Source: Dictyostelium discoideum (Eukaryota). From it: a stretch of 64,000 nt of DNA. Where the stretch lies: the NCBI GenBank assembly GCA_000004695.1, contig CM000150.2, forward strand, positions 3,296,001 to 3,360,000. The letters run 5' to 3'. Position 1 is the stretch's first letter. Every line of letters starts with the position of its first letter. A program made the translations under genes and the position numbers. This document shows positions 37,580-62,939 of the stretch, in pieces. The notes beneath the pieces are model-generated. The model was not told the origin of the DNA, ran no database searches, and worked only from the letters and a program-made list of their open reading frames with translations.

Positions 37580-38327
37580 TATTAATACTTTTTTTATTAT
37601 TTTTATATTTTTTATTTTAAAATAGATAATAATGATTTTGATTCAGAAATTAGAAAACCATTTTATTCAGTAATTTATCATTTATTTCAACATTATTCTA
37701 ATTTTATGTTAAAGAGTGGAGCAAATTATAGTTTTTTTAAAGATCAATTTTTAGAATCACCATTAAATTCACAAAATAAAAAATTATTAGAAGTTATATG
37801 TAATTCTCAAATGGTTGAAGTATTTTTTGGTGAAAAGGAGAATGAATTCTCTGATAGTGGTGAAGTGAATTGTGAATTCTTGAATGGCGCAAGAGAGAAA
37901 GCCGATGAAATACCATTCTTTTCAAGAAAGAAACTTGGTCAATATGATTGTCCAGCATGTTTAAATTCGACTATATCATTTTCAACTTGGGATTTAAATG
38001 GATTCATAATTCATAGGGAATGTTTAAAATGTCGTACTTGTGAAATGGCCTTTGAAAATCCAACCGATGATAAAGATAAAATTGAAATAAAGAAAATTAA
38101 TGATGGTGAAGCTATAAAAATCTATTGTACAGATTGCAGAAGTAAAACATTTATGAACAAAATTAAAAATACCTCTTCTCATTCAAAACAAAAATTTTAT
38201 AATTTCATTAAAACTGATAATTTATTTCATAATTCAATTGTATTAAATAATAATTATAATTCAAATAATTTAAATGTAAATAAAGATAATAATAATATTA
38301 ATTATAGTAATAACTATAGTAATAATA

Positions 38328-38402
<75 letters not shown>

Positions 38403-38746
38403 GCGTTAATAATTATGGATTTGGACCACAACATCCTTTACCTATGTCAGTGTCTCACGAAATTCATAATTTCAAATTTAAAAATAGTACAAATAGCAAT
38501 AACAATAACAATAACAATAACAATAGCAACTCCAACACCACCACCAACAACAACACCAATAATAATAATAGCAACAACCAACCAACGCAAACATTACATA
38601 TACAAACTCAACAACCATTGACACCATCAAAACTGGTTGTACCAAAACCATTAAATACTCAAAATAAAGGAAAATCACTTTCAAGTGCTCAATTCGCTCA
38701 AATTTTAACTAATCATCATAATCATACGCAACAAAATAATAGTAAT

Positions 38747-38813
<67 letters not shown>

Positions 38814-39301
38814 TTAATAATAATAATATTATTATTAGCAATGGAAAATCAGGATCAGGTGGTATTCCGTTACAAAAATCATCATCTTTAGGTAATAGCT
38901 CAAGTGGTACTGCCAATATTACAAGTGGAAGTTGTATTACTTTTGGAAATAATTATAGTAACAATATTGGCGGTGGCGGTAGTAGTAGTAGTAATAGTAG
39001 TAGTGGTAATAATAGTAGTAGTAATAGTAGTACAAATTTAAATAAACAACTAGTTGATAGATTTAAACCTCCACTACCTCCTACTCCTGGTGAAAGAAAG
39101 GAAAGAGCATTAGAACAAATGAAACAAAGAAATATTCATGTTGTCATTGAGGATTATCAATATACTGCTGATAATAATAATAATAATAATTATAGCAACT
39201 ACAACAACAACACAGATAGTTCAATTCCTTCATTTTCATTTTCATCTAGTCCACAAAATCCACCACCACCAATTTCACCAAGAAGCCAAAACAACAACAA
39301 C

Positions 39302-39392
<91 letters not shown>

Positions 39393-40250
39393 TCAATAGT
39401 AATAATATCACCACATCCAATTTAACTAAATCAGTATCATATAGTGGAACAATTAATAAACCTGCTATACCAGCCCGTAGTTTTAACAAAGATATTGAAA
39501 AAGAAGATTTAACTCAATTTCAAAATAGTAATAAAAAAAATGCACCCCCACCAGTACCAGAGAGATCAAAAACTCCCCCACCTCCCCAATTATCATCGTC
39601 ACCATCATCATCATCTAATGAATCATCAACAAAAATATCACCCCCATTTCTTTCACCAAGAAGAAAATCAAATCCTGCTATTTTACAAGTTTATGCTCAA
39701 CAACATCAACATCAGCAACAACATCAACACCTACAAAAAAAGAGTATACACATTAAATCATCACCTTTAAATCCAGTATCAAATCCTATTCCAATTACTA
39801 GAAAAAATAATAATAATAACAATAACAATAGTAATACATCATATTCACCATCACCACCTGCAATACCACCAAGACAATTACCACCAAAATTATCTAAACC
39901 AACAACTAGTTTCACAAAACTTCCTGATTCAACAATTTTAAAAAAAGCAGCAAAACCAACTCCTCAAATTTTCGAACCATCTTCCTCCTCACCACAACAA
40001 CAACAACCCCCATCTCCCATTAAAAGTTTTAACAAAAATAGTCCAAATAGAAATAATAATAATGGAAATAACAATGGAAATAACAATGGAAATAACAATG
40101 GAAATAAAACACCATCGCCACCTCCACTTCCAACTAGAAAAGTAAATGTTATTAATAATAATAATGGTAATGGAAATAAAACACCATCACCTCCAAAAAG
40201 CAATATTGCTAATCCTTCTTCAATAGCTATAAAACCAATTGTATTTGATG

Positions 40251-40330
<80 letters not shown>

Positions 40331-40461
40331 CCACCTGCAATTCCTGCAAGAACTCCTCCTAAAACATCCCCACGCACAATGGTTAAAGAATACAATAACA
40401 ACAATATTTATTATCACAATCAATTTCAGTATAAACAACCTCCAAAACAACAACCACCACC

Positions 40462-40524
<63 letters not shown>

Positions 40525-40672
40525 CTTATCAACCTCACCCCCAGAAATTAAATCACCAAGAAGACTCAATAAAACATGTCATAATTGTGCAGAACCATTA
40601 AATTGTAAGATACCAATTACTATGTTTGAAAATAATTACTATCATCAACATTGTTTCAATAATAGTTATTAG
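36298..40672 (+). CDS. DENN-domain protein (uDENN-cDENN-dDENN) with two Cys-rich zinc-finger-like motifs and a very long poly-N/poly-Q/Pro-rich C-terminal region. join(36298..36533,36628..36964,37066..37474,37626..40672), about 1342 aa.
   Basis: Seen in sequence: exon 1 …LFNKFLIVGLDPDT…VIEFCFPESSDECSNIMKK (donor AG|GTACAT). Exon 2 begins SDTTIKFFSFVLTDSYGNKTIAYCKRF… (the canonical uDENN FSFVLTD..G.R.YGYC motif) and ends at a GTAAGT donor. Exon 3 is cDENN (…ITESRVILLSKDISVVSNGILALSSLLSPLVWQHIFISILPNALMPYVAAPIPFLVGIL…) ending at a GTATGT donor after …HPT. Exon 4 is dDENN (…FDSEIRKPFYSVIYHLFQHYSNFM…FFKDQFLESPLNSQNKKLLEVICNSQMVEVFF), then CPACLNS…HRECLKCRTCEMAF…CTDCRS and a C-terminal CHNCAEPLNC…HQHCF. 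Phases are consistent at every junction. Confidence 0.7.
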
Positions 40673-49399: not shown

Positions 49400-49499
49400 A
49401 TGAGTAGATTACAACCTCAACAACAACAAAGAGGTCGGTCATCATCATTTAAAGATAATTTTCAAATTCAAAAGCCATTACAATCATTAACGCCATCAG

Positions 49500-49576
<77 letters not shown>

Positions 49577-49963
49577 AATAATGCGAACAATAATAATAAT
49601 AATAATAATAATAAATTTAATAACCAATATATACAACAAATGAAGAATGTTGAAAATGATATAAAAAAATGGATTGGAGAGAAATGTAGTTCATCATTAT
49701 CCGATGACTTTTTAGAGAAAGATTTAATGGAATCATTATGTACAGGTACGATATTATGTGTTTTAATTAATATGATTAAACAAGGTACGATTCAAAAGAT
49801 TCATTTACAACCAAATTATTTACAAAGAGTTGAAAACATTAGAAATTATCTTAGAGCTTGTTGGTTATTTGGATTACATTCGAAATATTTCTTTCCAAGT
49901 TCTTATTTACTTAGTATGACTATTGAAAATAATGATAATTCTAATTCATCAAAAACAACTACA

Positions 49964-50042
<79 letters not shown>

Positions 50043-50324
50043 GAGCTATTATCACAAGTCCAAATAAAAATGGGGGTGTTAATACAATGATTGTAAATTT
50101 AGAATATAAAGAAAAGATCATGATAAATTTAACAGAATTATGTAAAATTTCATTAAAAATTAAAAATTTGTAAGTATTTTAAGTATTTCTTTTCAATTGA
50201 AAAGAAATAAAAGTAAATTTAAAAACAAGAATATTCTTTATTAATGTTACATATAATTGTATTATTTAGTGGTAGTTTTTTACAATTATCATCATCATCT
50301 TCTTCAACGCCACCTCCCCCAATA

Positions 50325-50356
<32 letters not shown>

Positions 50357-50723
50357 TAACAATAATAATAATAATAATGATCTTTTAATAAGCAATAACA
50401 GTAGTAATATATCTTCACCAAACTCATTTTCCGATTCACCAATGGGATTTTCATCATCTATTAATTCTAGCTCAAATAATTCAAATTTAAATACACCAAA
50501 TAATTATAATAATACAAATAACAATAACAATAACAACAACAACAACAATAATAATAATAATAATAATATTAATAATCTAACACCACAAATGATTATTTCT
50601 TCACCAACATCGACATCATCAACTCCACCATTACCACCATGTGCAAATAATATAAATAATAATAATTTAAAGAAAAGGACAAAAATACCCAAAAATAATA
50701 ATAATAATAATAATAACAATAAC

Positions 50724-50787
<64 letters not shown>

Positions 50788-51903
50788 TTATAATAAAAAG
50801 AGATTGTAAAAAAGTTTATAGAAAAAGAAAATCATCAAATTGTGATAATGATGATAATGGTTCAAATTCAGATTCAGATTCATCAGATTCATCAGATTCA
50901 TCAGATTCAGATTCGGATTCATTGTTAAGTAGTGATGGTACACCAATTATTTTGTCACAAAGTAGTAATCCAGAATCTGTATCATTTAAATCATTTATAA
51001 AGGAGATATTACATTTAAAGAATATAATATCAAAACAAGATAAAACTATAACTTCTCAAAAACAAACCATTGAAACATTGGAAAAAGATTTAGAATTTCA
51101 AAAACAATTAACAAAGAAATTGTTGAGTTCACCAATTGATCTCTCTAATTTCATTGAAACCTCCTCTGACCCAAATGGTGCTATACCAGTATCTATACAA
51201 GCATTCACTAGACAAATTCAACAGATTCAAACACTTCAACAACAAAATCTATCACTTGAAACTGAATTATCTAAAACCAATGAACATCTTTCAACTAATA
51301 TAAGGAAAAATTCAAAATTAGAGAATGAAGTATTATCAATTGAAACAGAGTTATTAAATTTACGTATGAAATATGCAAATACTCTTTCATCTTCAAATTC
51401 AAATGGAAATAATAATAGCAATAATAATAGTTTAGGTTGTAATAATAGTATAAATGGTAGTAGTAGTGGCGGTGGTGGTAATAATTCATCTACTTCAAAA
51501 GGTACTTTATCACGTACAATTTCACAACCATTTCCATTAAGAAAATCAATTTCTCATTCAAATATAATAACCTCACCTGTCAATTCACATCAACAACAAC
51601 AACAACAAAATCAATTATCTCAATCACAAACGACTTCACCAAAAAATACTTCTGCAAGTTATAATAATGGTATTTTAAGTAAATCTTCAATTGTTAGTAA
51701 TACTAATACTAATAGTACATATAAATTTGGTTCATCTACTGGTATATTAAAAGTTTCTGCAACTCTTCAACAAAAACAACAACAACAACAGCAACAACAG
51801 AATCAGCAACAACAACAGAATCAGCAACAACAACAACAGAATCAGCAACAACAGAATCAACAACAACAGAATCAACAAAAACAGAATCAACAACAACAGA
51901 ATC

Positions 51904-51940
<37 letters not shown>

Positions 51941-51954
51941 GAATCAACAGCAGC

Positions 51955-51997
<43 letters not shown>

Positions 51998-53919
51998 GAA
52001 TCAACAACAACAACAAAATAATCAATTATCACAATCACAACAATTACAACAACAACAAAATCAACAAATAAACAATTTAATAGATTCACCATTAATAATT
52101 TCAAATTCATCAAATCAACAAATTGAATCAGAATCAATTGAATCAGATTCAGATTATGATAAAGATATGGTAGATTTTGGTAAAAAGATAGTATCAGCGT
52201 TAATATCATCAAGTAATCATGTTGAAATGAGTGAAATTTATAAAATGAATGATATACTGACAAATGAAACATCAAGAAGACAAATTTGTATAGTATTGGA
52301 AGAGGAGACAAAAATCAATCAATTAAAATTACCAATGAATGAAAATTCATTCGAAGTTACACTTTATCTTGTAAATACAATACTACAATGTATACACGAA
52401 GCACCAAGTAAAGATTATTTTAGTTTAAAGTTAATAATGGAAAGTAGTAGAATACTTAATAGAAAAAAAGTTAATGGCTCTTGTGAATTCATTCAAGAGT
52501 TTATAAAAGATCATCCAACTTGGAAAGATATTAAATTTTGGGAAGAACAATATTGGGATGAATTAATTATAAAACATCAACAATTTAGTGGTAGTGGTAG
52601 TAGTAGTAGTAGTAATACAGGTGGTTCAATTGTAACAACAATGACAACAACAACAACTGTAACAAGTGCAATTACCTCTTCATCATCTACTACTAGTGAT
52701 GATTTTGATGTTGATTATACTGAATTGGTTAATACACTTTTGATATCATATGTATATAATTTAGCAAGTTGGGGATTATCAAAGAGTGATGTTAAAGAAT
52801 TTACAATTTCAATGTCAAAGAAATCATTCTTAAAATCGAATGAATTGGAGAAACTTATAGAGCAAGTAACTTCAACGGTTGAATTATCATTTACCTCGGA
52901 TCATAATGTTTGTAAAGGACCACATTCATTCGTTTTGAAAAGTTTTAGAATCATATCGGAATGTAATTATTGTAGACAATATATTTGGGGTGTTAGAGGT
53001 ATCGTTGCACGTGAAGCATTTGAATGTGTTGGATGTAAATATAAAACTCATAAGAAATGTTTGAAAGAGGCATCTGAAAAAACATTTTGTTCATCACCAA
53101 ATGTTGGTGCACCATTCAATGTTAAACATGAAATGCATGTTGGTCTTGCAATTCAAGGTTTACCCTCTGGTTGGCGTACTCTCTTACTTCAATCTGGTTT
53201 TCAAGATTATGAAATTCAACAACATCAAGAAGATGTATTAGATGTTTTAGAATTTCATCATGTTTATAATGAAAAACAACAAAATTCAATTAAATTATTA
53301 ACAAATAATAGTAATAATAATAATAATAATAATAATAGTAATAATAATTTACAACAACAACAACAACAAAACCAACAATTAAAACAAAAATTAAATATAA
53401 CTAATAATCAACAAAATAATACAATAATAAATATTAATATAACTTCACCTTCAATTAGTGTTAATAATAATACATATAATAATAATAATAATAATAACAA
53501 TAATAATGAAATAAATCCATCATCACCAAATAATAATAATAATTATTATGATTCATTATTAGAAATTGAAGAACCATCATTTACATTAAAAGATTTAGTT
53601 TCATTAGAAAATCCTATTGATTTATATAAAGTAAGGGAGGTTGTTGGTGGTGGATCAACAGGAAAAGTTTATGTTGGTGAAAATTCAATAACTGGCGAAA
53701 AGGTAGCAATTAAAAAGATGAAAGTAGATAATAATAATATTAAAAATATAATTAATGAAATTAGTACAATGAAAAATTCAAAACATAAAAATGTAATTAA
53801 ATATGTTAGTTCACATTTAGTTATAAATCATATTTGGTTAATTATGGAATATATGTCTTATGGTTCATTAACTGATTTAATTAGTAACTGTATAAATATT
53901 CAATGTAATGGTAATAATC

Positions 53920-53951
<32 letters not shown>

Positions 53952-54536
53952 ACTTATTTTATTGAATCACATATTGCATATATTTGTCAACAAGTTTTAC
54001 AAGGTATGGACTATATTCATAAAGGTCATAGAACTCATAGGGATATAAAGAGTGATAATATTTTATTGGGTAAAGATGGAAGTGTAAAAATTGCAGATTT
54101 TGGTTTCGTTGCAAATTTAACTAGAAAGAAACTTCAAAGAAATAGTGTTGTTGGTACACCCTATTTTATGGCACCAGAATTAATCAGAGGTAATCAATAT
54201 AATCATAAGGTTGATATTTGGAGTTTAGGTATTTTAGCAAGAGAATTATCAGAAGGTGAACCACCCTATGCAAAATATCCACCAGTTAGAGCATTATTTT
54301 TATTAACTTTAGAAGGTGTACCAGATTTTAAAGAACCAAATAAATGGTCATCTGATTTCATCGAATTTGTTAATCTATGTTTAAATTTAGATGATAAAAG
54401 AAGACCTGATGCTCATTACCTTTTAAGACATCCTTTCTTAAAAAAAGCTTGTTCTTCAAGAGAATTTGCTGATAAAGTTGAAGAAATTTATAATACTCGT
54501 AAAAATCAATTCTCTGATATTAATTTTAATTTTTAA
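49400..54536 (+). CDS. STE20/PAK-family serine/threonine kinase with N-terminal calponin-homology (CH) domain, C1 (DAG/phorbol-ester-type) zinc finger, CRIB/PBD motif and C-terminal kinase domain. join(49400..50169,50270..54536), 1678 aa. Possibly the Dictyostelium pakD-type gene (assignment uncertain).
   Basis: Seen in sequence: CH domain (…KKWIGEKCSS…LCTGTILCVLINMIKQGTIQKIHLQPNYLQRVENIRNYLRAC). Exon 1 ends …IKN+TT at a GTAAGT donor (50170); 100-nt intron, acceptor tattatttag. C1 is HNVCKGPHSFVLKSFRIISECNYCRQYIWGVRGIVAREAFECVGCKYKTHKKC. CRIB is SSPNVGAPFNVKHEMHVGLA. Kinase subdomains are GGGSTGKVYVG…VAIKKM…HRDIKSDNILL…DFG…GTPYFMAPE. Long poly-Q/poly-N linkers. Confidence 0.75.
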
Positions 54537-54708: not shown

Positions 54709-55586
54709 TTATATGAAAAAACCTAAAATAAAAGCAATTGGTACAATAATATAAATTGGTATGAATGGAATTGCAATATGACCAATTTTACCAATTAAAT
54801 AAAGGTATAGTAATATTAAGAAAGCACAAACCAAACCAGTTACAGTCATGTCGAAACCAGGTTCATTTAATTTTGTAAGTAAAACCAAAATATTTGTACC
54901 AATGAAAATAAAGAAAGGAATGAATTTAATTGACCATGATAATAAATAAGTTGTTTGAGAAATTAATTCTAAAATCGTATAAATTGTAAAGTAAACTATA
55001 AAACTTGGATAAAAGATTCTAAAATTCTTTTTAAAACCTTTGGTTCTATAATTCTTTTGTTTTCCATTATCATTTCTTGAGTCGTTTCTTAATAACATTG
55101 CTAATCCTAAGAATACCCATAATGGTATTAAAACATAAAATAAATTTACATCTGTATCTGATGGTGAATTTAATTTAACCGATACTAAAACTACAAATAT
55201 ACCTAATGAACATGTTGATAATATTGACCAAATAAAATATCCAATATCTGATGATTTCAATGCTGATGATCCTGCAAAGAATATTAATAAAATAAATGTT
55301 ACATATAATGGTGAAAATATTCTTATCCTATTATTTTTTTTAAAAATTTTGATTGATTATTTTAAAAATGTTTAGAAAATAAAAAAAATAAAAAATTTAA
55401 TAATTAATAATTTAAATTAAAAAAAAAAAAGAATGAATTTTAGATAAAAAAATATAATATTAACACTTACCAACTCCAAGAAGTTAGTTTACCTGATATT
55501 CTCATTAAAAAAAAAATTAACCATATAACAAATGATATATTTAAAAATATCCATGATGAATATTTTATTACTTTTCTTGATGACAT
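54709..55586 (-). CDS. Multi-pass membrane protein, join(54709..55327,55471..55586), about 244 aa with at least 6 predicted TM helices. Possibly TMEM185-like (weak).
   Basis: Seen in sequence: exon 1 MSSRKVIKYSSWIFLNISFVIWLIFFLMRISGKLTSWS plus GTAAGT (55470). A 143-nt AT-rich intron ends …aataatag. Exon 2 is phase-consistent and extends track ORF 54709..55260 (whose 'M' is TTG) upstream: …IRIFSPLYVTFILLIFFAGSSALKSSDIGYFIW…. Confidence 0.45.
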
Positions 55587-56106: not shown

Positions 56107-58728
56107 ATGACATCAAATTATCAATATCCCAATCCAAAAAGTTATACAAATAATAATAAAAATTTCGATCAACATTATGTATGGGGATGGAATGAAGGAC
56201 GACAATTAGGAATTGGTCATTACCAAAATGGTATGGAAATTGTTAAAGAACCCTATAGTTTAGGTGGTTCACATAATTTTGATACGAAATCAATATCAAT
56301 AGGTATGGCTCATTCACTAGCTATCGATAGTAGAGGTCAACTTTATTCATGTGGTAAAACTGCATATGGTAGATTAGGTTTGGGTGATTATTTATCACAA
56401 AATCAACAAAATATAAAAGAATTTACACAAATTAAATTAAATAAAGATGATAATGATGATCATGATAACAGTTATAGTTATAGTTATACTAGTAGTAGAA
56501 TTAATAATAAAATAAATAATAAAATAAATAATTCAATTAATAACTATATTAAAGTTAATAAAATTTCATGTGGTAGTGCACATAGTGCATTTATAACAGA
56601 GAATTTTCAATTATTTACATTTGGTAAAAATGATCAAGGTCAGTTGGGTCAAGGTTTAATAAATGAATTACATTCACCAAAGAGAGTTATTTATATTCAA
56701 TATAGTTTCAATCCAAATGAAATTGATCAAAGTAAAGCAATCACTGAAAAATCTACAAACTATCATGATAATGTCGATTTGGTGGCATGCGGTTTAAATC
56801 ATACTGTATTCAGTTTAAAAGATGGTTGTGTTTATTCAATGGGTAGTAATAAATTTTCACAATTAGGTTATCAGAGTACTATAAATGATAAAGTTTCACC
56901 AATTGTACAACCTGATGGAATTGTACAACCATCACCACCACTACCACTATTAGAACATAGACCAAGATTAATTGAATCTTTAAATTTACCACCACAACAT
57001 TTAGAACAACGTTTTACAAATATAAAATCAATATCATGTGGTTCAAATTTTACTGTTTGTATTAAACAAGGTAATCTTTATACTTGGGGTACAAATAATT
57101 TGGGTCAATGTGGTTTTAATCCAAAAGAAAATGATGATATTATTACAACAACTTCATCGTCATCATCATCAACCACTACCAATAATAATAATAATATAAT
57201 AATTAATAAACCAAAATTATTAATAATTTATGGTGATAAATCAACATTATCAACAGATTCAAATAATGGTAATGGTAAAAGAGTATTTAATTTTACTCAA
57301 GTTTCATGTGGTGTTGATCATTGTTTAGCATTAACTAATAATGGTCAAGTATTTGGATGGGGTGATAATAAGTATGGTCAAATTGGTCAATTAACATTTT
57401 CATCCGTTATAAAGATTGATACAACCACACCAATTAGAATTGGTGAATCATTAACCAATGAATTTATTACACAAATTTCAAGTGGTGCTTATCATTCAAT
57501 GGCATTAACTAAATCAAGTATAATCTATGCATGGGGTTTAAATGATAAGTGTCAAATTGGTGAAATTGGTAAAAATCAACAAGAAATCATTCAAACTCCC
57601 TGTCGTGTTAGATTTACAAATGCCAAAGAAAATTGTGCACCCATTTTACAAATATCTGCAGGTGGTAGATCATCAATGGCTATTAAATATTCACCCTCAA
57701 AAGTTGATATTAGACCATCGACCTATTTCGATGACATTTTAAGAATATTAGAAAATAAAAGTTTTCAAGACTTTAATTTAAACATTACAGATAATGAAGG
57801 TAAAATTAAAGAAATGTTTAAATTAAATAAACTATTTTGGAATAGATCATTGGTTTTACAATCATTGAAATCAAAAGAATTAACATCAACATCCTCAACC
57901 AATGTTGCAATTGAAAAATCAGAATTTATCAAAACTTTTAATGATTACTCAATAAAAGAAATCATTCAAGATCTATATATTGATGCACCAAGTAATCAAA
58001 GTTTTATTACAACTTCAATTTCTGAATATTTATTCTCAATGATTAATCAATCATCATTTTCTGATGTTAAAATTAAAGTAATTTGTAGAAATGATCAAGA
58101 TGATAAAGAAGTGACAAAAATTTTTAATGCACATAAATGTTTATTAGTAAATAGATCAGAGAAATTCAAAACATTATTAGAATCAAACTATTTTAAAGAA
58201 TCTATAGATGGTGTAATTACAATCGATGATTCGCCATCATTTCAAGTTTATGAAACATTTTTAACCTATTTATATACTGATGTATTAAATTTAAATAATG
58301 AAAATGTCATTGATTTATTTTTATTATCACACAGAGAATCTCAAAATAGAATGAAAGATTTAATTGAAGAATATTTATTCAATTCATTAGATATTGATAA
58401 TGTTTCAAACATTTTCGAATTGGCTTTACAATTAAATGATAATGCTATTTCAATCGATTCAAAAGGTATAAATAACTTTCTCATTGGTCAATGTATTTTC
58501 TTTATTGCTAAAAATTTAGAACAAGTTTCAAAAACTGAATCATTCATTAATTTATCTGATAATTCAAAAATAATTTTATCATCAAATTCAATTAATTTAA
58601 ATAATTCAAAATCAAATAAATCTTTAAATAATAATAATAATAATAATAATAATACCAACACTAATGATGATAATAATGATAATGATTTAAATAATGGTAA
58701 TAATGGTAAAAAATGTATTATATGTTAA
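56107..58728 (+). CDS. RCC1-repeat and BTB-domain protein (RCBTB1/2-like), 873 aa. Seven RCC1 blades then a BTB/POZ domain. The C-terminus ends …GKKCIIC.
   Basis: Seen in sequence: repeated RCC1 signatures (YVWGWNEGRQLGIG; LYSCGKTAYGRLGLG; FTFGKNDQGQLGQG; VYSMGSNKFSQLG; LYTWGTNNLGQCG; VFGWGDNKYGQIGQ; IYAWGLNDKCQIGE). BTB is FSDVKIKVICRNDQDDKEVTKIFNAHKCLLVNRSEKFKTLLESNYFKE…ITIDDSPSFQVYETFLTYLYTD. Confidence 0.8.
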   Translation: MTSNYQYPNPKSYTNNNKNFDQHYVWGWNEGRQLGIGHYQNGMEIVKEPYSLGGSHNFDTKSISIGMAHSLAIDSRGQLYSCGKTAYGRLGLGDYLSQNQQNIKEFTQIKLNKDDNDDHDNSYSYSYTSSRINNKINNKINNSINNYIKVNKISCGSAHSAFITENFQLFTFGKNDQGQLGQGLINELHSPKRVIYIQYSFNPNEIDQSKAITEKSTNYHDNVDLVACGLNHTVFSLKDGCVYSMGSNKFSQLGYQSTINDKVSPIVQPDGIVQPSPPLPLLEHRPRLIESLNLPPQHLEQRFTNIKSISCGSNFTVCIKQGNLYTWGTNNLGQCGFNPKENDDIITTTSSSSSSTTTNNNNNIIINKPKLLIIYGDKSTLSTDSNNGNGKRVFNFTQVSCGVDHCLALTNNGQVFGWGDNKYGQIGQLTFSSVIKIDTTTPIRIGESLTNEFITQISSGAYHSMALTKSSIIYAWGLNDKCQIGEIGKNQQEIIQTPCRVRFTNAKENCAPILQISAGGRSSMAIKYSPSKVDIRPSTYFDDILRILENKSFQDFNLNITDNEGKIKEMFKLNKLFWNRSLVLQSLKSKELTSTSSTNVAIEKSEFIKTFNDYSIKEIIQDLYIDAPSNQSFITTSISEYLFSMINQSSFSDVKIKVICRNDQDDKEVTKIFNAHKCLLVNRSEKFKTLLESNYFKESIDGVITIDDSPSFQVYETFLTYLYTDVLNLNNENVIDLFLLSHRESQNRMKDLIEEYLFNSLDIDNVSNIFELALQLNDNAISIDSKGINNFLIGQCIFFIAKNLEQVSKTESFINLSDNSKIILSSNSINLNNSKSNKSLNNNNNNNNNTNTNDDNNDNDLNNGNNGKKCIIC

Positions 58729-58770: not shown

Positions 58771-62939
<4,169 letters not shown>

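Follow-up and report, generated by a model that had tools for sequence, protein, structure and literature searches.

The Dictyostelium discoideum kinase PakD looks like a CH-SBF2-C1 cassette fused to a group-I-type PAK

At one locus in a 64,000-nucleotide stretch of Dictyostelium discoideum DNA (the window), a STE20/PAK kinase appears to share a polypeptide with a CH domain, a C1 zinc finger and a CRIB motif. This raises the questions of whether a single transcript carries all of these domains, and whether each is the actin, lipid or Rac input that its name implies. The best explanation as a whole, which we hold with high confidence, is that the locus is pakD, a two-exon gene for a 1678-residue protein that would combine a domain cassette with a group-I-type PAK, with the domain roles inferred below. 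Its features, in window coordinates, are as follows.

49400..50169, + strand: pakD exon 1, aa 1-256 plus two bases of codon 257, with a poly-Q/N head and the CH domain (ORF, in-frame upstream stop, exact primer match)
49649..50152, + strand: calponin-type (type 3) CH domain, aa ~84-251, with a poly-N loop (aa ~178-226) ahead of the last helix (Pfam, PDB, AF2/Foldseek, cassette alignment)
50170..50269, + strand: pakD intron, 100 nt, GTAAGT...TTATTTAG (TAG end), 15% GC (sequence, frame, orthologue junction, cDNA PCR)
50270..54536, + strand: pakD exon 2, aa 257-1678 plus stop codon (continuous ORF, published primers)
50931..51320, + strand: conserved helical region, probably coiled-coil, aa ~478-607 (weak Pfam coiled-coil matches, orthologue conservation)
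52155..52901, + strand: SBF2-type helical domain (PF12335), aa ~886-1134, with a Ser/Thr-rich insert at aa ~1029-1066 (Pfam, phmmer, alignment, AF2)
52923..53090, + strand: C1 zinc finger with non-canonical spacing (x17, x9), aa 1142-1197 (Pfam, spacing, alignment, PDB)
53103..53258, + strand: PBD, made up of the CRIB core (aa 1202-1215, 53103-53144) and a PAK1-like inhibitory-switch region (..VLDVLEF..) (Pfam, PAK1 alignment)
53625..54440, + strand: STE20/PAK kinase domain, aa 1376-1647, into which 21 residues are inserted, a poly-Q run among them (Pfam, PDB, motifs)

The gene is D. discoideum pakD, an identity that the initial annotation had offered as a possibility. Four published PakD cloning primers (PMC4010531) each have an exact single match, at 49400-49433, 52149-52180, 52764-52788 and 54498-54533 (0 expected by chance), and the published description of a 190 kD protein with kinase, DAG-binding, CRIB and CH domains (PMC4010531) agrees with the computed 190.8 kDa and the domains scored by Pfam. 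PakD as described by Goldberg et al. 2006 (PMC1420674) and Phillips & Gomer 2014 (PMC4010531) is the same gene, with no difference in identity. An exact look-up of the 1678-residue product in a protein collection returned no entry, so the match to the annotated pakD model is indirect; a word-index search for homologues of aa 885-1265 was likewise empty, which we read as a limit of the search method, since the collection contains a 72%-identical orthologue. A further study of PakD was reportedly made by Garcia et al. in 2014. According to published genetics, PakD has roles in chemorepulsion by AprA/CfaD and polyphosphate, in the control of proliferation and in the regulation of actin; cells lacking pakD (pakD-) show defects in actin and filopodia, and the protein is found mainly at one intracellular punctum and also at the rear cortex and in protrusions. 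The four-domain architecture is already published, with genetics studied since 2006-2014, so that the observation itself is not new. PMC1420674 and PMC4010531 mention neither an SBF2-type domain nor the non-canonical nature of C1 and CRIB, nor a relation to kinase-less CH-SBF2-C1 proteins.

Joining 49400..50169 to 50270..54536 gives an open frame of 1678 residues in two exons, as had been proposed. The exon 1 ATG is preceded, at a distance of 9 nt, by an in-frame stop. Only the donor GT at 50170 preserves the frame, and in-frame acceptors are found at 50269, 50275 and 50392. Alternatively, the locus could hold two separate genes, one for a 257-residue CH-only protein (49400..50173) and one for a 1430-residue kinase that begins at the ATG at 50244. 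Both ORFs, 49400..50173 and 50244..54536, are indeed complete with an ATG start, and unspliced RNA meets a stop codon at 50171-50173. However, PCR on vegetative cDNA with primers flanking the intron (49400 and 52788) yielded the 5′ fragment of pakD, and the whole construct was sequenced (PMC4010531); this amplification spans 50170..50269, the intron for which the initial annotation had suggested confirmation from cDNA. The same construct restored the response to rAprA/rCfaD and, in part, colony spreading (PMC4010531). The ATG at 50244 sits in AT-rich sequence that has consensus splice sites, and the Tieghemostelium lacteum orthologue (KYQ92738.1) is contiguous across the junction, where it keeps the residues GSFL immediately after the splice site. 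In addition, exon 2 encodes a Gly (G187 of the query) that follows the last CH helix and is present in at least 90% of aligned cassette CH regions. Given the cDNA PCR, the splice sites, the continuity in T. lacteum and the exon 2-encoded Gly, the two-gene reading was rejected as almost certainly wrong, and the separate CH exon is assigned to the same transcript as the kinase.

In the spliced product, Pfam domains follow in the claimed order of CH, C1, PBD/CRIB and kinase. All four scored above cut-off (Pkinase 210 bits, PBD 33-40, C1_1 29-35, CH 38), but the CH domain was not detected in a scan of the whole protein and scored only on the isolated segment (profile positions 3-78 of 109). Between the domains lie long poly-Q/poly-N tracts, as described initially; N makes up 16.7% and Q 11.7% of PakD, and one Q-rich tract runs for 86 residues.

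The assignment of the kinase to the PAK-type STE20 class held up, as a PDB search ranked PAK3, PAK1 and PAK2 best (254-233 bits, vs 214 for MST1/2). The catalytic motifs are all present (GxGxxG as GGGSTGKV, VAIK, HRDIKSDN, DFG and GTPYFMAPE). PakD resembles PAK1/2/3 not only in its kinase but also in having a CRIB and a putative inhibitory-switch segment (VLDVLEF) upstream of it, and in having a phosphorylatable residue, here Ser, at the position of PAK1 Thr423. By these motifs, the C-terminal third of PakD is a group-I-type PAK module in which a CRIB and a PAK1-like inhibitory-switch segment precede a catalytically intact STE20 kinase.

The canonical CRIB ISSP..F.H..HVG named in the initial annotation is absent. 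The actual sequence is CSSPNVGAPFNVKHEMHVG, for which alignment to PAK1 sets the register V-G-A-P-F-N-V-K-H-E-M-H-V-G; in the core, VGAPFNVKHEMHVG, P, HxxH and VG are retained and three of the eight consensus positions are changed (I to V, S to G, F to V), so that "canonical" was an overstatement. In PAK1, H83 and H86 are the histidines needed for GTPase binding. Beyond the core, VLDVLEF is conserved in an alignment of the inhibitory-switch region with 1F3M_A, the autoregulatory fragment of PAK1 (22.5 bits, E 4e-4; PAK1 residues around 70-140). In the low-complexity sequence after VLDVLEF a PAK1-type kinase-inhibitory segment was not recognisable, which, together with the off-consensus CRIB, sets PakD apart from PAK1-3. 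By analogy with PAK1, the CRIB/inhibitory-switch region may keep the kinase inactive until GTP-bound Rac binds. Conversely, the CRIB may be degenerate and Rac binding lost, leaving a PBD for autoinhibition or dimerisation only, with activation via the cassette or phosphorylation. The three changed positions speak for such a loss, and no Rac partner of PakD has been reported (PMC8305917), yet both GTPase-binding histidines and VG are preserved, the motif is nearly identical across three dictyostelid species, and the Pfam PBD score lies far over the cut-off (33.4-39.9 vs 21.3 bits). We therefore consider degeneration unlikely and favor a PBD that would still respond to Rac.

The C1 finger had been given the spacing H-x12-C-x2-C-x13-C-x2-C-x4-H-x2-C-x7-C, whereas the real one is H-x12-C-x2-C-x17-C-x2-C-x4-H-x2-C-x9-C. 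All eight zinc ligands are present, and Pfam C1_1 scores 29.4-34.6 bits vs a cut-off of 26.5, barely over it in the full-length scan (29.4). An alignment that took in typical and atypical C1 domains, with PKC delta as a reference sequence, showed replacement of Pro11 by Ile, Phe13 by Glu, Gln27 by Glu and Gly28 by Ala, retention of Trp22 and Gly23, and four extra residues in the β3-β4 loop. PakD thus departs both from the typical zinc-ligand spacing (x13/14, x7) and from the groove consensus (Pro11, Gly23 and Gln27 with short β1-β2 and β3-β4 loops). In C1 domains, Pro11 and Gln27 matter for ligand binding and the β3-β4 loop lines one side of the ligand groove; because PakD lacks both residues and has the enlarged loop, diacylglycerol binding is doubtful. 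The best PDB match was PKC iota, whose C1 is atypical. The kinome paper, which reports that Dictyostelium has no PKC and that three of its kinases have C1 domains, raised the idea of PakD as a PKC stand-in, and a true diacylglycerol/phorbol-ester sensor would suit that role. The Pfam score, the full set of zinc ligands, the retained Trp22 and Gly23 and the C1-bearing kinases of a PKC-less organism are compatible with it, as is P0011, a cassette relative with a typical-looking C1 that has Pro11 and KQG. Against this, Pro11 (Ile or Val), Phe13 (Glu) and Gly28 (Ala) are replaced in all three PakD orthologues and Gln27 (Glu) in two of the three, and the loop insertion and the match to PKC iota point the same way; moreover, plc- cells respond normally to AprA/CfaD (PMC4010531). 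A diacylglycerol sensor appears improbable, and the C1 is probably an atypical protein- or membrane-contact finger.

The CH segment matched calponin in a PDB sequence search (36 bits, E 4e-8). An AF2 model of the exon-1 residues only gave pLDDT values of 87-95 for the last helix, its top Foldseek matches were the CH domains of calponin-2, transgelin-2, Vav3, PIX and IQGAP1, and the segment aligns with the CH domains of cassette proteins. Pfam scans of the whole protein and of segments yielded one CH copy only; the second CH of a tandem CH1-CH2 actin-binding domain (alpha-actinin/spectrin type) was not found, and tandem proteins ranked under single-CH proteins in the fold search. The domain is a single type 3 CH of the calponin/transgelin/Vav/IQGAP/PIX class. 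Single type-3 CH domains are generally insufficient alone for F-actin binding and are often regulatory or scaffolding. Could the CH nevertheless tether PakD directly to F-actin, as an actin input? The confirmed fold, the actin and filopodia defects of pakD- cells and the presence of PakD at the cortex and in protrusions would agree with such a tether. However, a lone CH of the calponin type, broken up by a poly-N loop, says little for actin binding, and PakD resides mainly at the punctum, which makes direct tethering unlikely; we favor a regulatory or scaffolding domain that is probably not an autonomous F-actin binder. The notion of three clean inputs (actin, lipid, Rac) consequently fits poorly with a single CH, with a C1 so altered in Pro11, Gln27 and its loop, and with plc- cells that still respond to AprA/CfaD.

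The list of four domains was also incomplete, as two conserved segments between CH and C1 had been overlooked. The first, at aa ~478-607, had no more than weak Pfam matches to coiled-coil families, and the orthologues of T. lacteum and Synstelium conserve it strongly; it is probably a coiled coil. The second scored 34.8 bits against Pfam SBF2 (PF12335; cut-off 22.1, profile positions 51-149 of 227) as a segment, but was not detected in the full-length Pfam scan. The T. lacteum orthologue scored 29.2 bits, and AF2 predicts an all-helical structure, with a block-mean pLDDT of at least about 90 across most of each half. A local phmmer re-search showed matches to PakD aa 885-1140 in 85 of the 150 representative proteins among the matches listed. 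Pfam SBF2 scored in 38 of 62 scanned homologues (the longer ones), one of which is a true DENN-SBF2-GRAM-myotubularin protein. The PakD segment resembles the SBF2 of MTMR5/MTMR13 and KIAA0513 in exceeding the gathering score and in being predicted all-helical; in MTMR5/13, however, SBF2 lies behind a DENN Rab-GEF module, whereas PakD has no DENN, GRAM or phosphatase domain.

By the domain matches, the N-terminal two-thirds of PakD is a cassette of calponin-type CH, conserved helical region, SBF2-type domain and C1. Proteins of other Amoebozoa and of one holozoan show the order CH - helical region - SBF2 - (C1) but have no kinase, and 23 of the 85 SBF2-type matches (among the matches listed) have the same N-terminal CH. 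Kinase-less examples include Heterostelium album PPL_09479, D. purpureum DICPUDRAFT_156272 and transcripts of Clastostelium (P0004, where SBF2-C1 follows the C-terminal half of a CH, the model beginning inside the CH) and Amoebidium (P0013, CH - SBF2-type - weak C1). These proteins share with PakD the calponin-type CH (28-34% identity), the SBF2-type domain (21-35% identity) and their order, and some of them the C1 tail HKKCLKEA...x9...C; unlike PakD they have no PBD or kinase, and some end in RhoGAP, RhoGEF or PH/SH3 domains. Since the cassette also occurs without a kinase, PakD looks like a cassette fused to a group-I-type PAK. The kinase-less occurrence and the reading of PakD as such a fusion appear to be new here; a literature search found no paper in which "calponin homology", "SBF2" and "C1 domain" come together. 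In this limited sampling of 155 hits in a 50%-identity-clustered library, the fusion was seen in dictyostelids only.

The cassette may place the kinase at the published PakD sites, the intracellular punctum, the rear cortex and the protrusions. A broader proposal, which we put forward tentatively and think somewhat more likely to fail than to hold, is that the cassette (CH, coiled coil, SBF2-type, C1; alone or with RhoGAP/RhoGEF/PH/SH3) is older than its fusion to the PAK, that it rather than the CRIB sets localization to the punctum and rear cortex, and that SBF2 would be a general Rho-pathway adaptor and not a DENN accessory.

The statement that this is not a metazoan PAK arrangement was borne out, as C1 and CRIB occur together on a PAK kinase only in dictyostelids among the hits examined. 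PAK1-3 have no CH, SBF2 or C1, and instead have proline-rich Nck/PIX-binding motifs; in metazoa the PAK partner PIX supplies a CH in trans, whereas PakD has a PIX/calponin-type CH on the same chain. A metazoan kinase combining C1 and CRIB does exist, since MRCK (CDC42BPA/B) carries both, with a kinase and a coiled coil, on one polypeptide like PakD. MRCK differs in its AGC/DMPK-type N-terminal kinase, in a CRIB that follows PH and CNH at the extreme C-terminus, in having no CH or SBF2, and in domain order and origin; the MRCK-1 match to PakD was marginal (E 0.57).

With pakD and its architecture known, nothing here is new for PAK biology. The results mean that the C1 should not be presumed a diacylglycerol sensor or the CH an actin binder, that the CRIB is non-canonical, and that the SBF2-type domain belongs to a cassette common to kinase-less proteins, which could steer domain-deletion work on the punctate localization of PakD and its role in chemorepulsion. 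Antisense ORFs within pakD, with poly-L, poly-V and poly-Y translations, were set aside because they simply mirror the low-complexity poly-Q/N tracts.

Each of the four primers printed for cloning the pakD ORF in Phillips & Gomer 2014 (PMC4010531) has one exact match in the window, where none is expected by chance:

49400-49433, + strand, pakD primer at the start codon
52149-52180, + strand, pakD primer
52764-52788, - strand, pakD primer
54498-54533, - strand, pakD primer at the last codons

Together with a computed product mass of 190.8 kDa, these matches identify the gene as D. discoideum pakD, which the initial annotation had named as a possibility. The C1 domain of PakD was already remarked in the 2006 kinome paper (PMC1420674). 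The architecture of the protein is already described in papers dating from 2006-2014, so the finding is a known one.

The gene model rests on two ORFs detected by scanning the window and on the intron that separates them in the sequence:

49400..50173, + strand, ORF containing the CH exon
50244..54536, + strand, ORF containing the kinase
50170..50269, + strand, pakD intron of 100 nt, from GTAAGT at 50170 to TTATTTAG at 50269

Joining 49400..50169 to 50270..54536 creates an open coding sequence of 5037 nt that encodes 1678 aa. The GT at 50170 is the sole donor that keeps the frame open, and the ATG at 49400 has an in-frame stop 9 nt upstream. Both the coordinates and the length of the product, as originally proposed, are therefore correct. 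The two ORFs belong to the same transcript rather than to separate ones, as a 5′ pakD fragment was amplified from cDNA of Dictyostelium at the vegetative stage with primers at 49400 and, in reverse, 52788, which flank the intron, and the whole PakD construct was sequenced (PMC4010531). In the mutant, PakD-GFP restored the response to recombinant AprA and CfaD and, in part, corrected the colony-spreading defect (PMC4010531). The region is extremely AT-rich, with 22-26% GC in exons, 15% in the intron and 5-11% in the flanks, and coding tracts of poly-Q and poly-N are abundant across it.

Three in-frame acceptors (50269, 50275 and 50392) are available for the pakD intron. A 1318-aa orthologue of the product from Tieghemostelium lacteum (KYQ92738.1, “p21-activated protein kinase”) is unbroken over the splice junction (EIKEKIIINILELSKISSKISSSGSFL vs. 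EYKEKIMINLTELCKISLKIKNFGSFL), and the alignment across the junction scores 86 vs. 26 ± 5 for shuffled sequences. The predicted splice thus has independent orthologue support, and the alignment favours the acceptor at 50269, which retains “GS”. The second in-frame AG, at 50275, lies 6 nt past this main acceptor (TAG TGG TAG, 50266-50275); splicing there could drop two residues (G and S) in a NAGNAG-like variant.

A whole-protein Pfam scan identified the kinase domain (Pkinase, aa 1376-1647, 210 bits) and a PBD (aa 1202-1253, 33.4 bits, cut-off 21.3). All catalytic motifs are present in the kinase domain, which is closest to PAK3, PAK1 and PAK2 (254-233 bits), with MST1/2 behind at 214 bits. Relative to PAK3 it carries a 21-residue insertion. 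The register of the CRIB sequence, CSSPNVGAPFNVKHEMHVG, was set against the autoregulatory fragment of PAK1 (1F3M_A; VGAPFNVKHEMHVG vs. ISLPSDFEHTIHVG) in an alignment that continues through the inhibitory-switch region, GLPSGW..LL...VLDVLEF. The Pro, both His residues and VG are retained; the departures are I->V, S->G and F->V. The PBD is real, but the description of its CRIB as canonical is not accurate. Kinase type and PBD together demonstrate that PakD is a PAK. The kinase insertion contains a poly-Q run (53913-53957, aa 1472-1486), and a near-pure Q/N tract of 86 residues occupies 51547-51804 (aa 760-845).

The same scan detected a C1 domain (C1_1, aa 1142-1195, 29.4 bits, cut-off 26.5) with the sequence HSFVLKSFRIISECNYCRQYIWGVRGIVAREAFECVGCKYKTHKKCLKEASEKTFC. 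Its spacing is x12, x2, x17, x2, x4, x2, x9, with x17 and x9 replacing the x13 and x7 reported earlier. The phorbol-ester/DAG groove of C1 domains is formed by Pro11, Gln27 and two loops. Alignment with typical C1 domains showed Pro11->Ile, Phe13->Glu, Gln27->Glu and Gly28->Ala in PakD, along with four additional residues in the β3-β4 loop. Because groove residues Pro11 and Gln27 are replaced and a groove loop is enlarged, DAG binding appears doubtful from the sequence. These changes recur in the Tieghemostelium and Synstelium orthologues, and among solved structures the PKC iota C1, an atypical one, matches best; we infer that the PakD C1 is atypical. The AprA/CfaD response is normal in plc- cells (PMC4010531).

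CH was absent from the whole-protein Pfam scan. When the N-terminal segment was searched alone, CH scored 38 bits (cut-off 26), covering only profile positions 3-78 of 109. The last helix, missing from this match, sits beyond a poly-N loop: aa ~230-251 pair with the final helix of related CH domains, and the AF2 model gives it a pLDDT of 87-95. The best Foldseek PDB matches were the CH domains of calponin-2, transgelin-2, calponin-1, Vav3, EB1, alpha/beta-PIX and IQGAP1, and sequence searching agreed. On these grounds PakD has one CH domain of the calponin (type 3) class rather than a tandem actin-binding domain. The domain would not be expected to bind actin autonomously.

Pfam therefore scores all four domains of the CH-C1-CRIB-kinase series initially listed, which overlooked a fifth. 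A globular region at aa ~886-1134, between the large poly-Q tract and C1, matches SBF2 (PF12335; 34.8 bits, cut-off 22.1), and a conserved helical stretch (aa ~478-607) lies N-terminal to it. With PakD aa 885-1265 as query, HMMER was run exhaustively over 1.84 billion representative proteins and returned 155 matches. Among those listed, only two, from the dictyostelids T. lacteum and Synstelium polycarpum, have the entire SBF2-C1-PBD stretch plus a kinase; other listed kinases have either a PBD and no C1 or a C1 and no PBD. A word-index protein search gave no match for a query although the collection it scanned includes a relative 72% identical to that query; its negatives are unreliable for low-complexity eukaryotic proteins.

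In a local phmmer search with aa 885-1140 against the best 150 of the 155 matches, the SBF2-type region was found in 85. Pfam SBF2 was scored by 38 of the 62 longer proteins in this set, 23 of the 85 have an N-terminal calponin-type CH domain as in PakD, and one listed match is a true DENN-SBF2-GRAM-myotubularin protein. C1 directly follows the SBF2-type domain in several listed matches, and the tail HKKCLK(E/D)A...x9...C is common to the C1 of PakD and of these cassette proteins. Relatives include Heterostelium album PPL_09479, D. purpureum DICPUDRAFT_156272 and transcripts from Clastostelium recurvatum, Cavostelium apophysatum and the ichthyosporean Amoebidium parasiticum. These comparisons demonstrate that the N-terminal two-thirds of PakD is homologous to a kinase-less CH - helical - SBF2 - (C1) cassette of other lineages. 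The SBF2-type domain and an origin by cassette fusion are possibly the sole novel elements here: a literature search found no paper on this point, but domain databases may annotate it already.

Other SBF2-type matches terminate in RhoGAP, RhoGEF or PH/SH3 domains. Recurrence beside such modules hints that the SBF2-type domain may be tied to Rho-family signalling, apart from the DENN/Rab context in which it was named. Individual arrangements include CH - SBF2-type - RhoGAP (P0032) and SBF2-type - PH - SH3 (P0014); RhoGEF occurs once.

PakD would be autoinhibited in the manner of PAK1, with GTP-bound Rac lifting inhibition, and the cassette would serve as a localisation or scaffold module. In published work, PakD-GFP marks a single intracellular punctum and occasionally the rear cortex, and AprA causes neither chemorepulsion nor inhibition of proliferation in pakD- cells, whose filopodia are enlarged and in which inhibition of cortical Ras fails. 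As regards metazoan PAKs, the view that this arrangement is not a metazoan one is correct. Metazoan PAKs recruit a CH domain in trans via PIX, whereas PakD carries one on its own chain. Metazoan MRCK kinases combine kinase, coiled coil, C1 and CRIB in one protein, although the domain order differs and their kinase is AGC-type.

The surroundings of pakD contain the following:

37706-40672, + strand, long ORF, 988 aa
43032-47830, - strand, upstream neighbour, multi-exon PAN2 homologue whose ORFs score PAN2_N, UCH_1 and RNase_T
54709-55260, - strand, small ORF of 183 aa, hydrophobic, several likely transmembrane stretches, no Pfam match
56107-58728, + strand, downstream neighbour, gene for an RCC1-repeat and BTB/POZ protein
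58995-62939, - strand, long ORF, 1314 aa

A Pfam search of the 988-aa and 1314-aa ORFs gave no family at E <= 1e-4. The 183-aa ORF is convergent with pakD and ends 172 nt from its stop codon.
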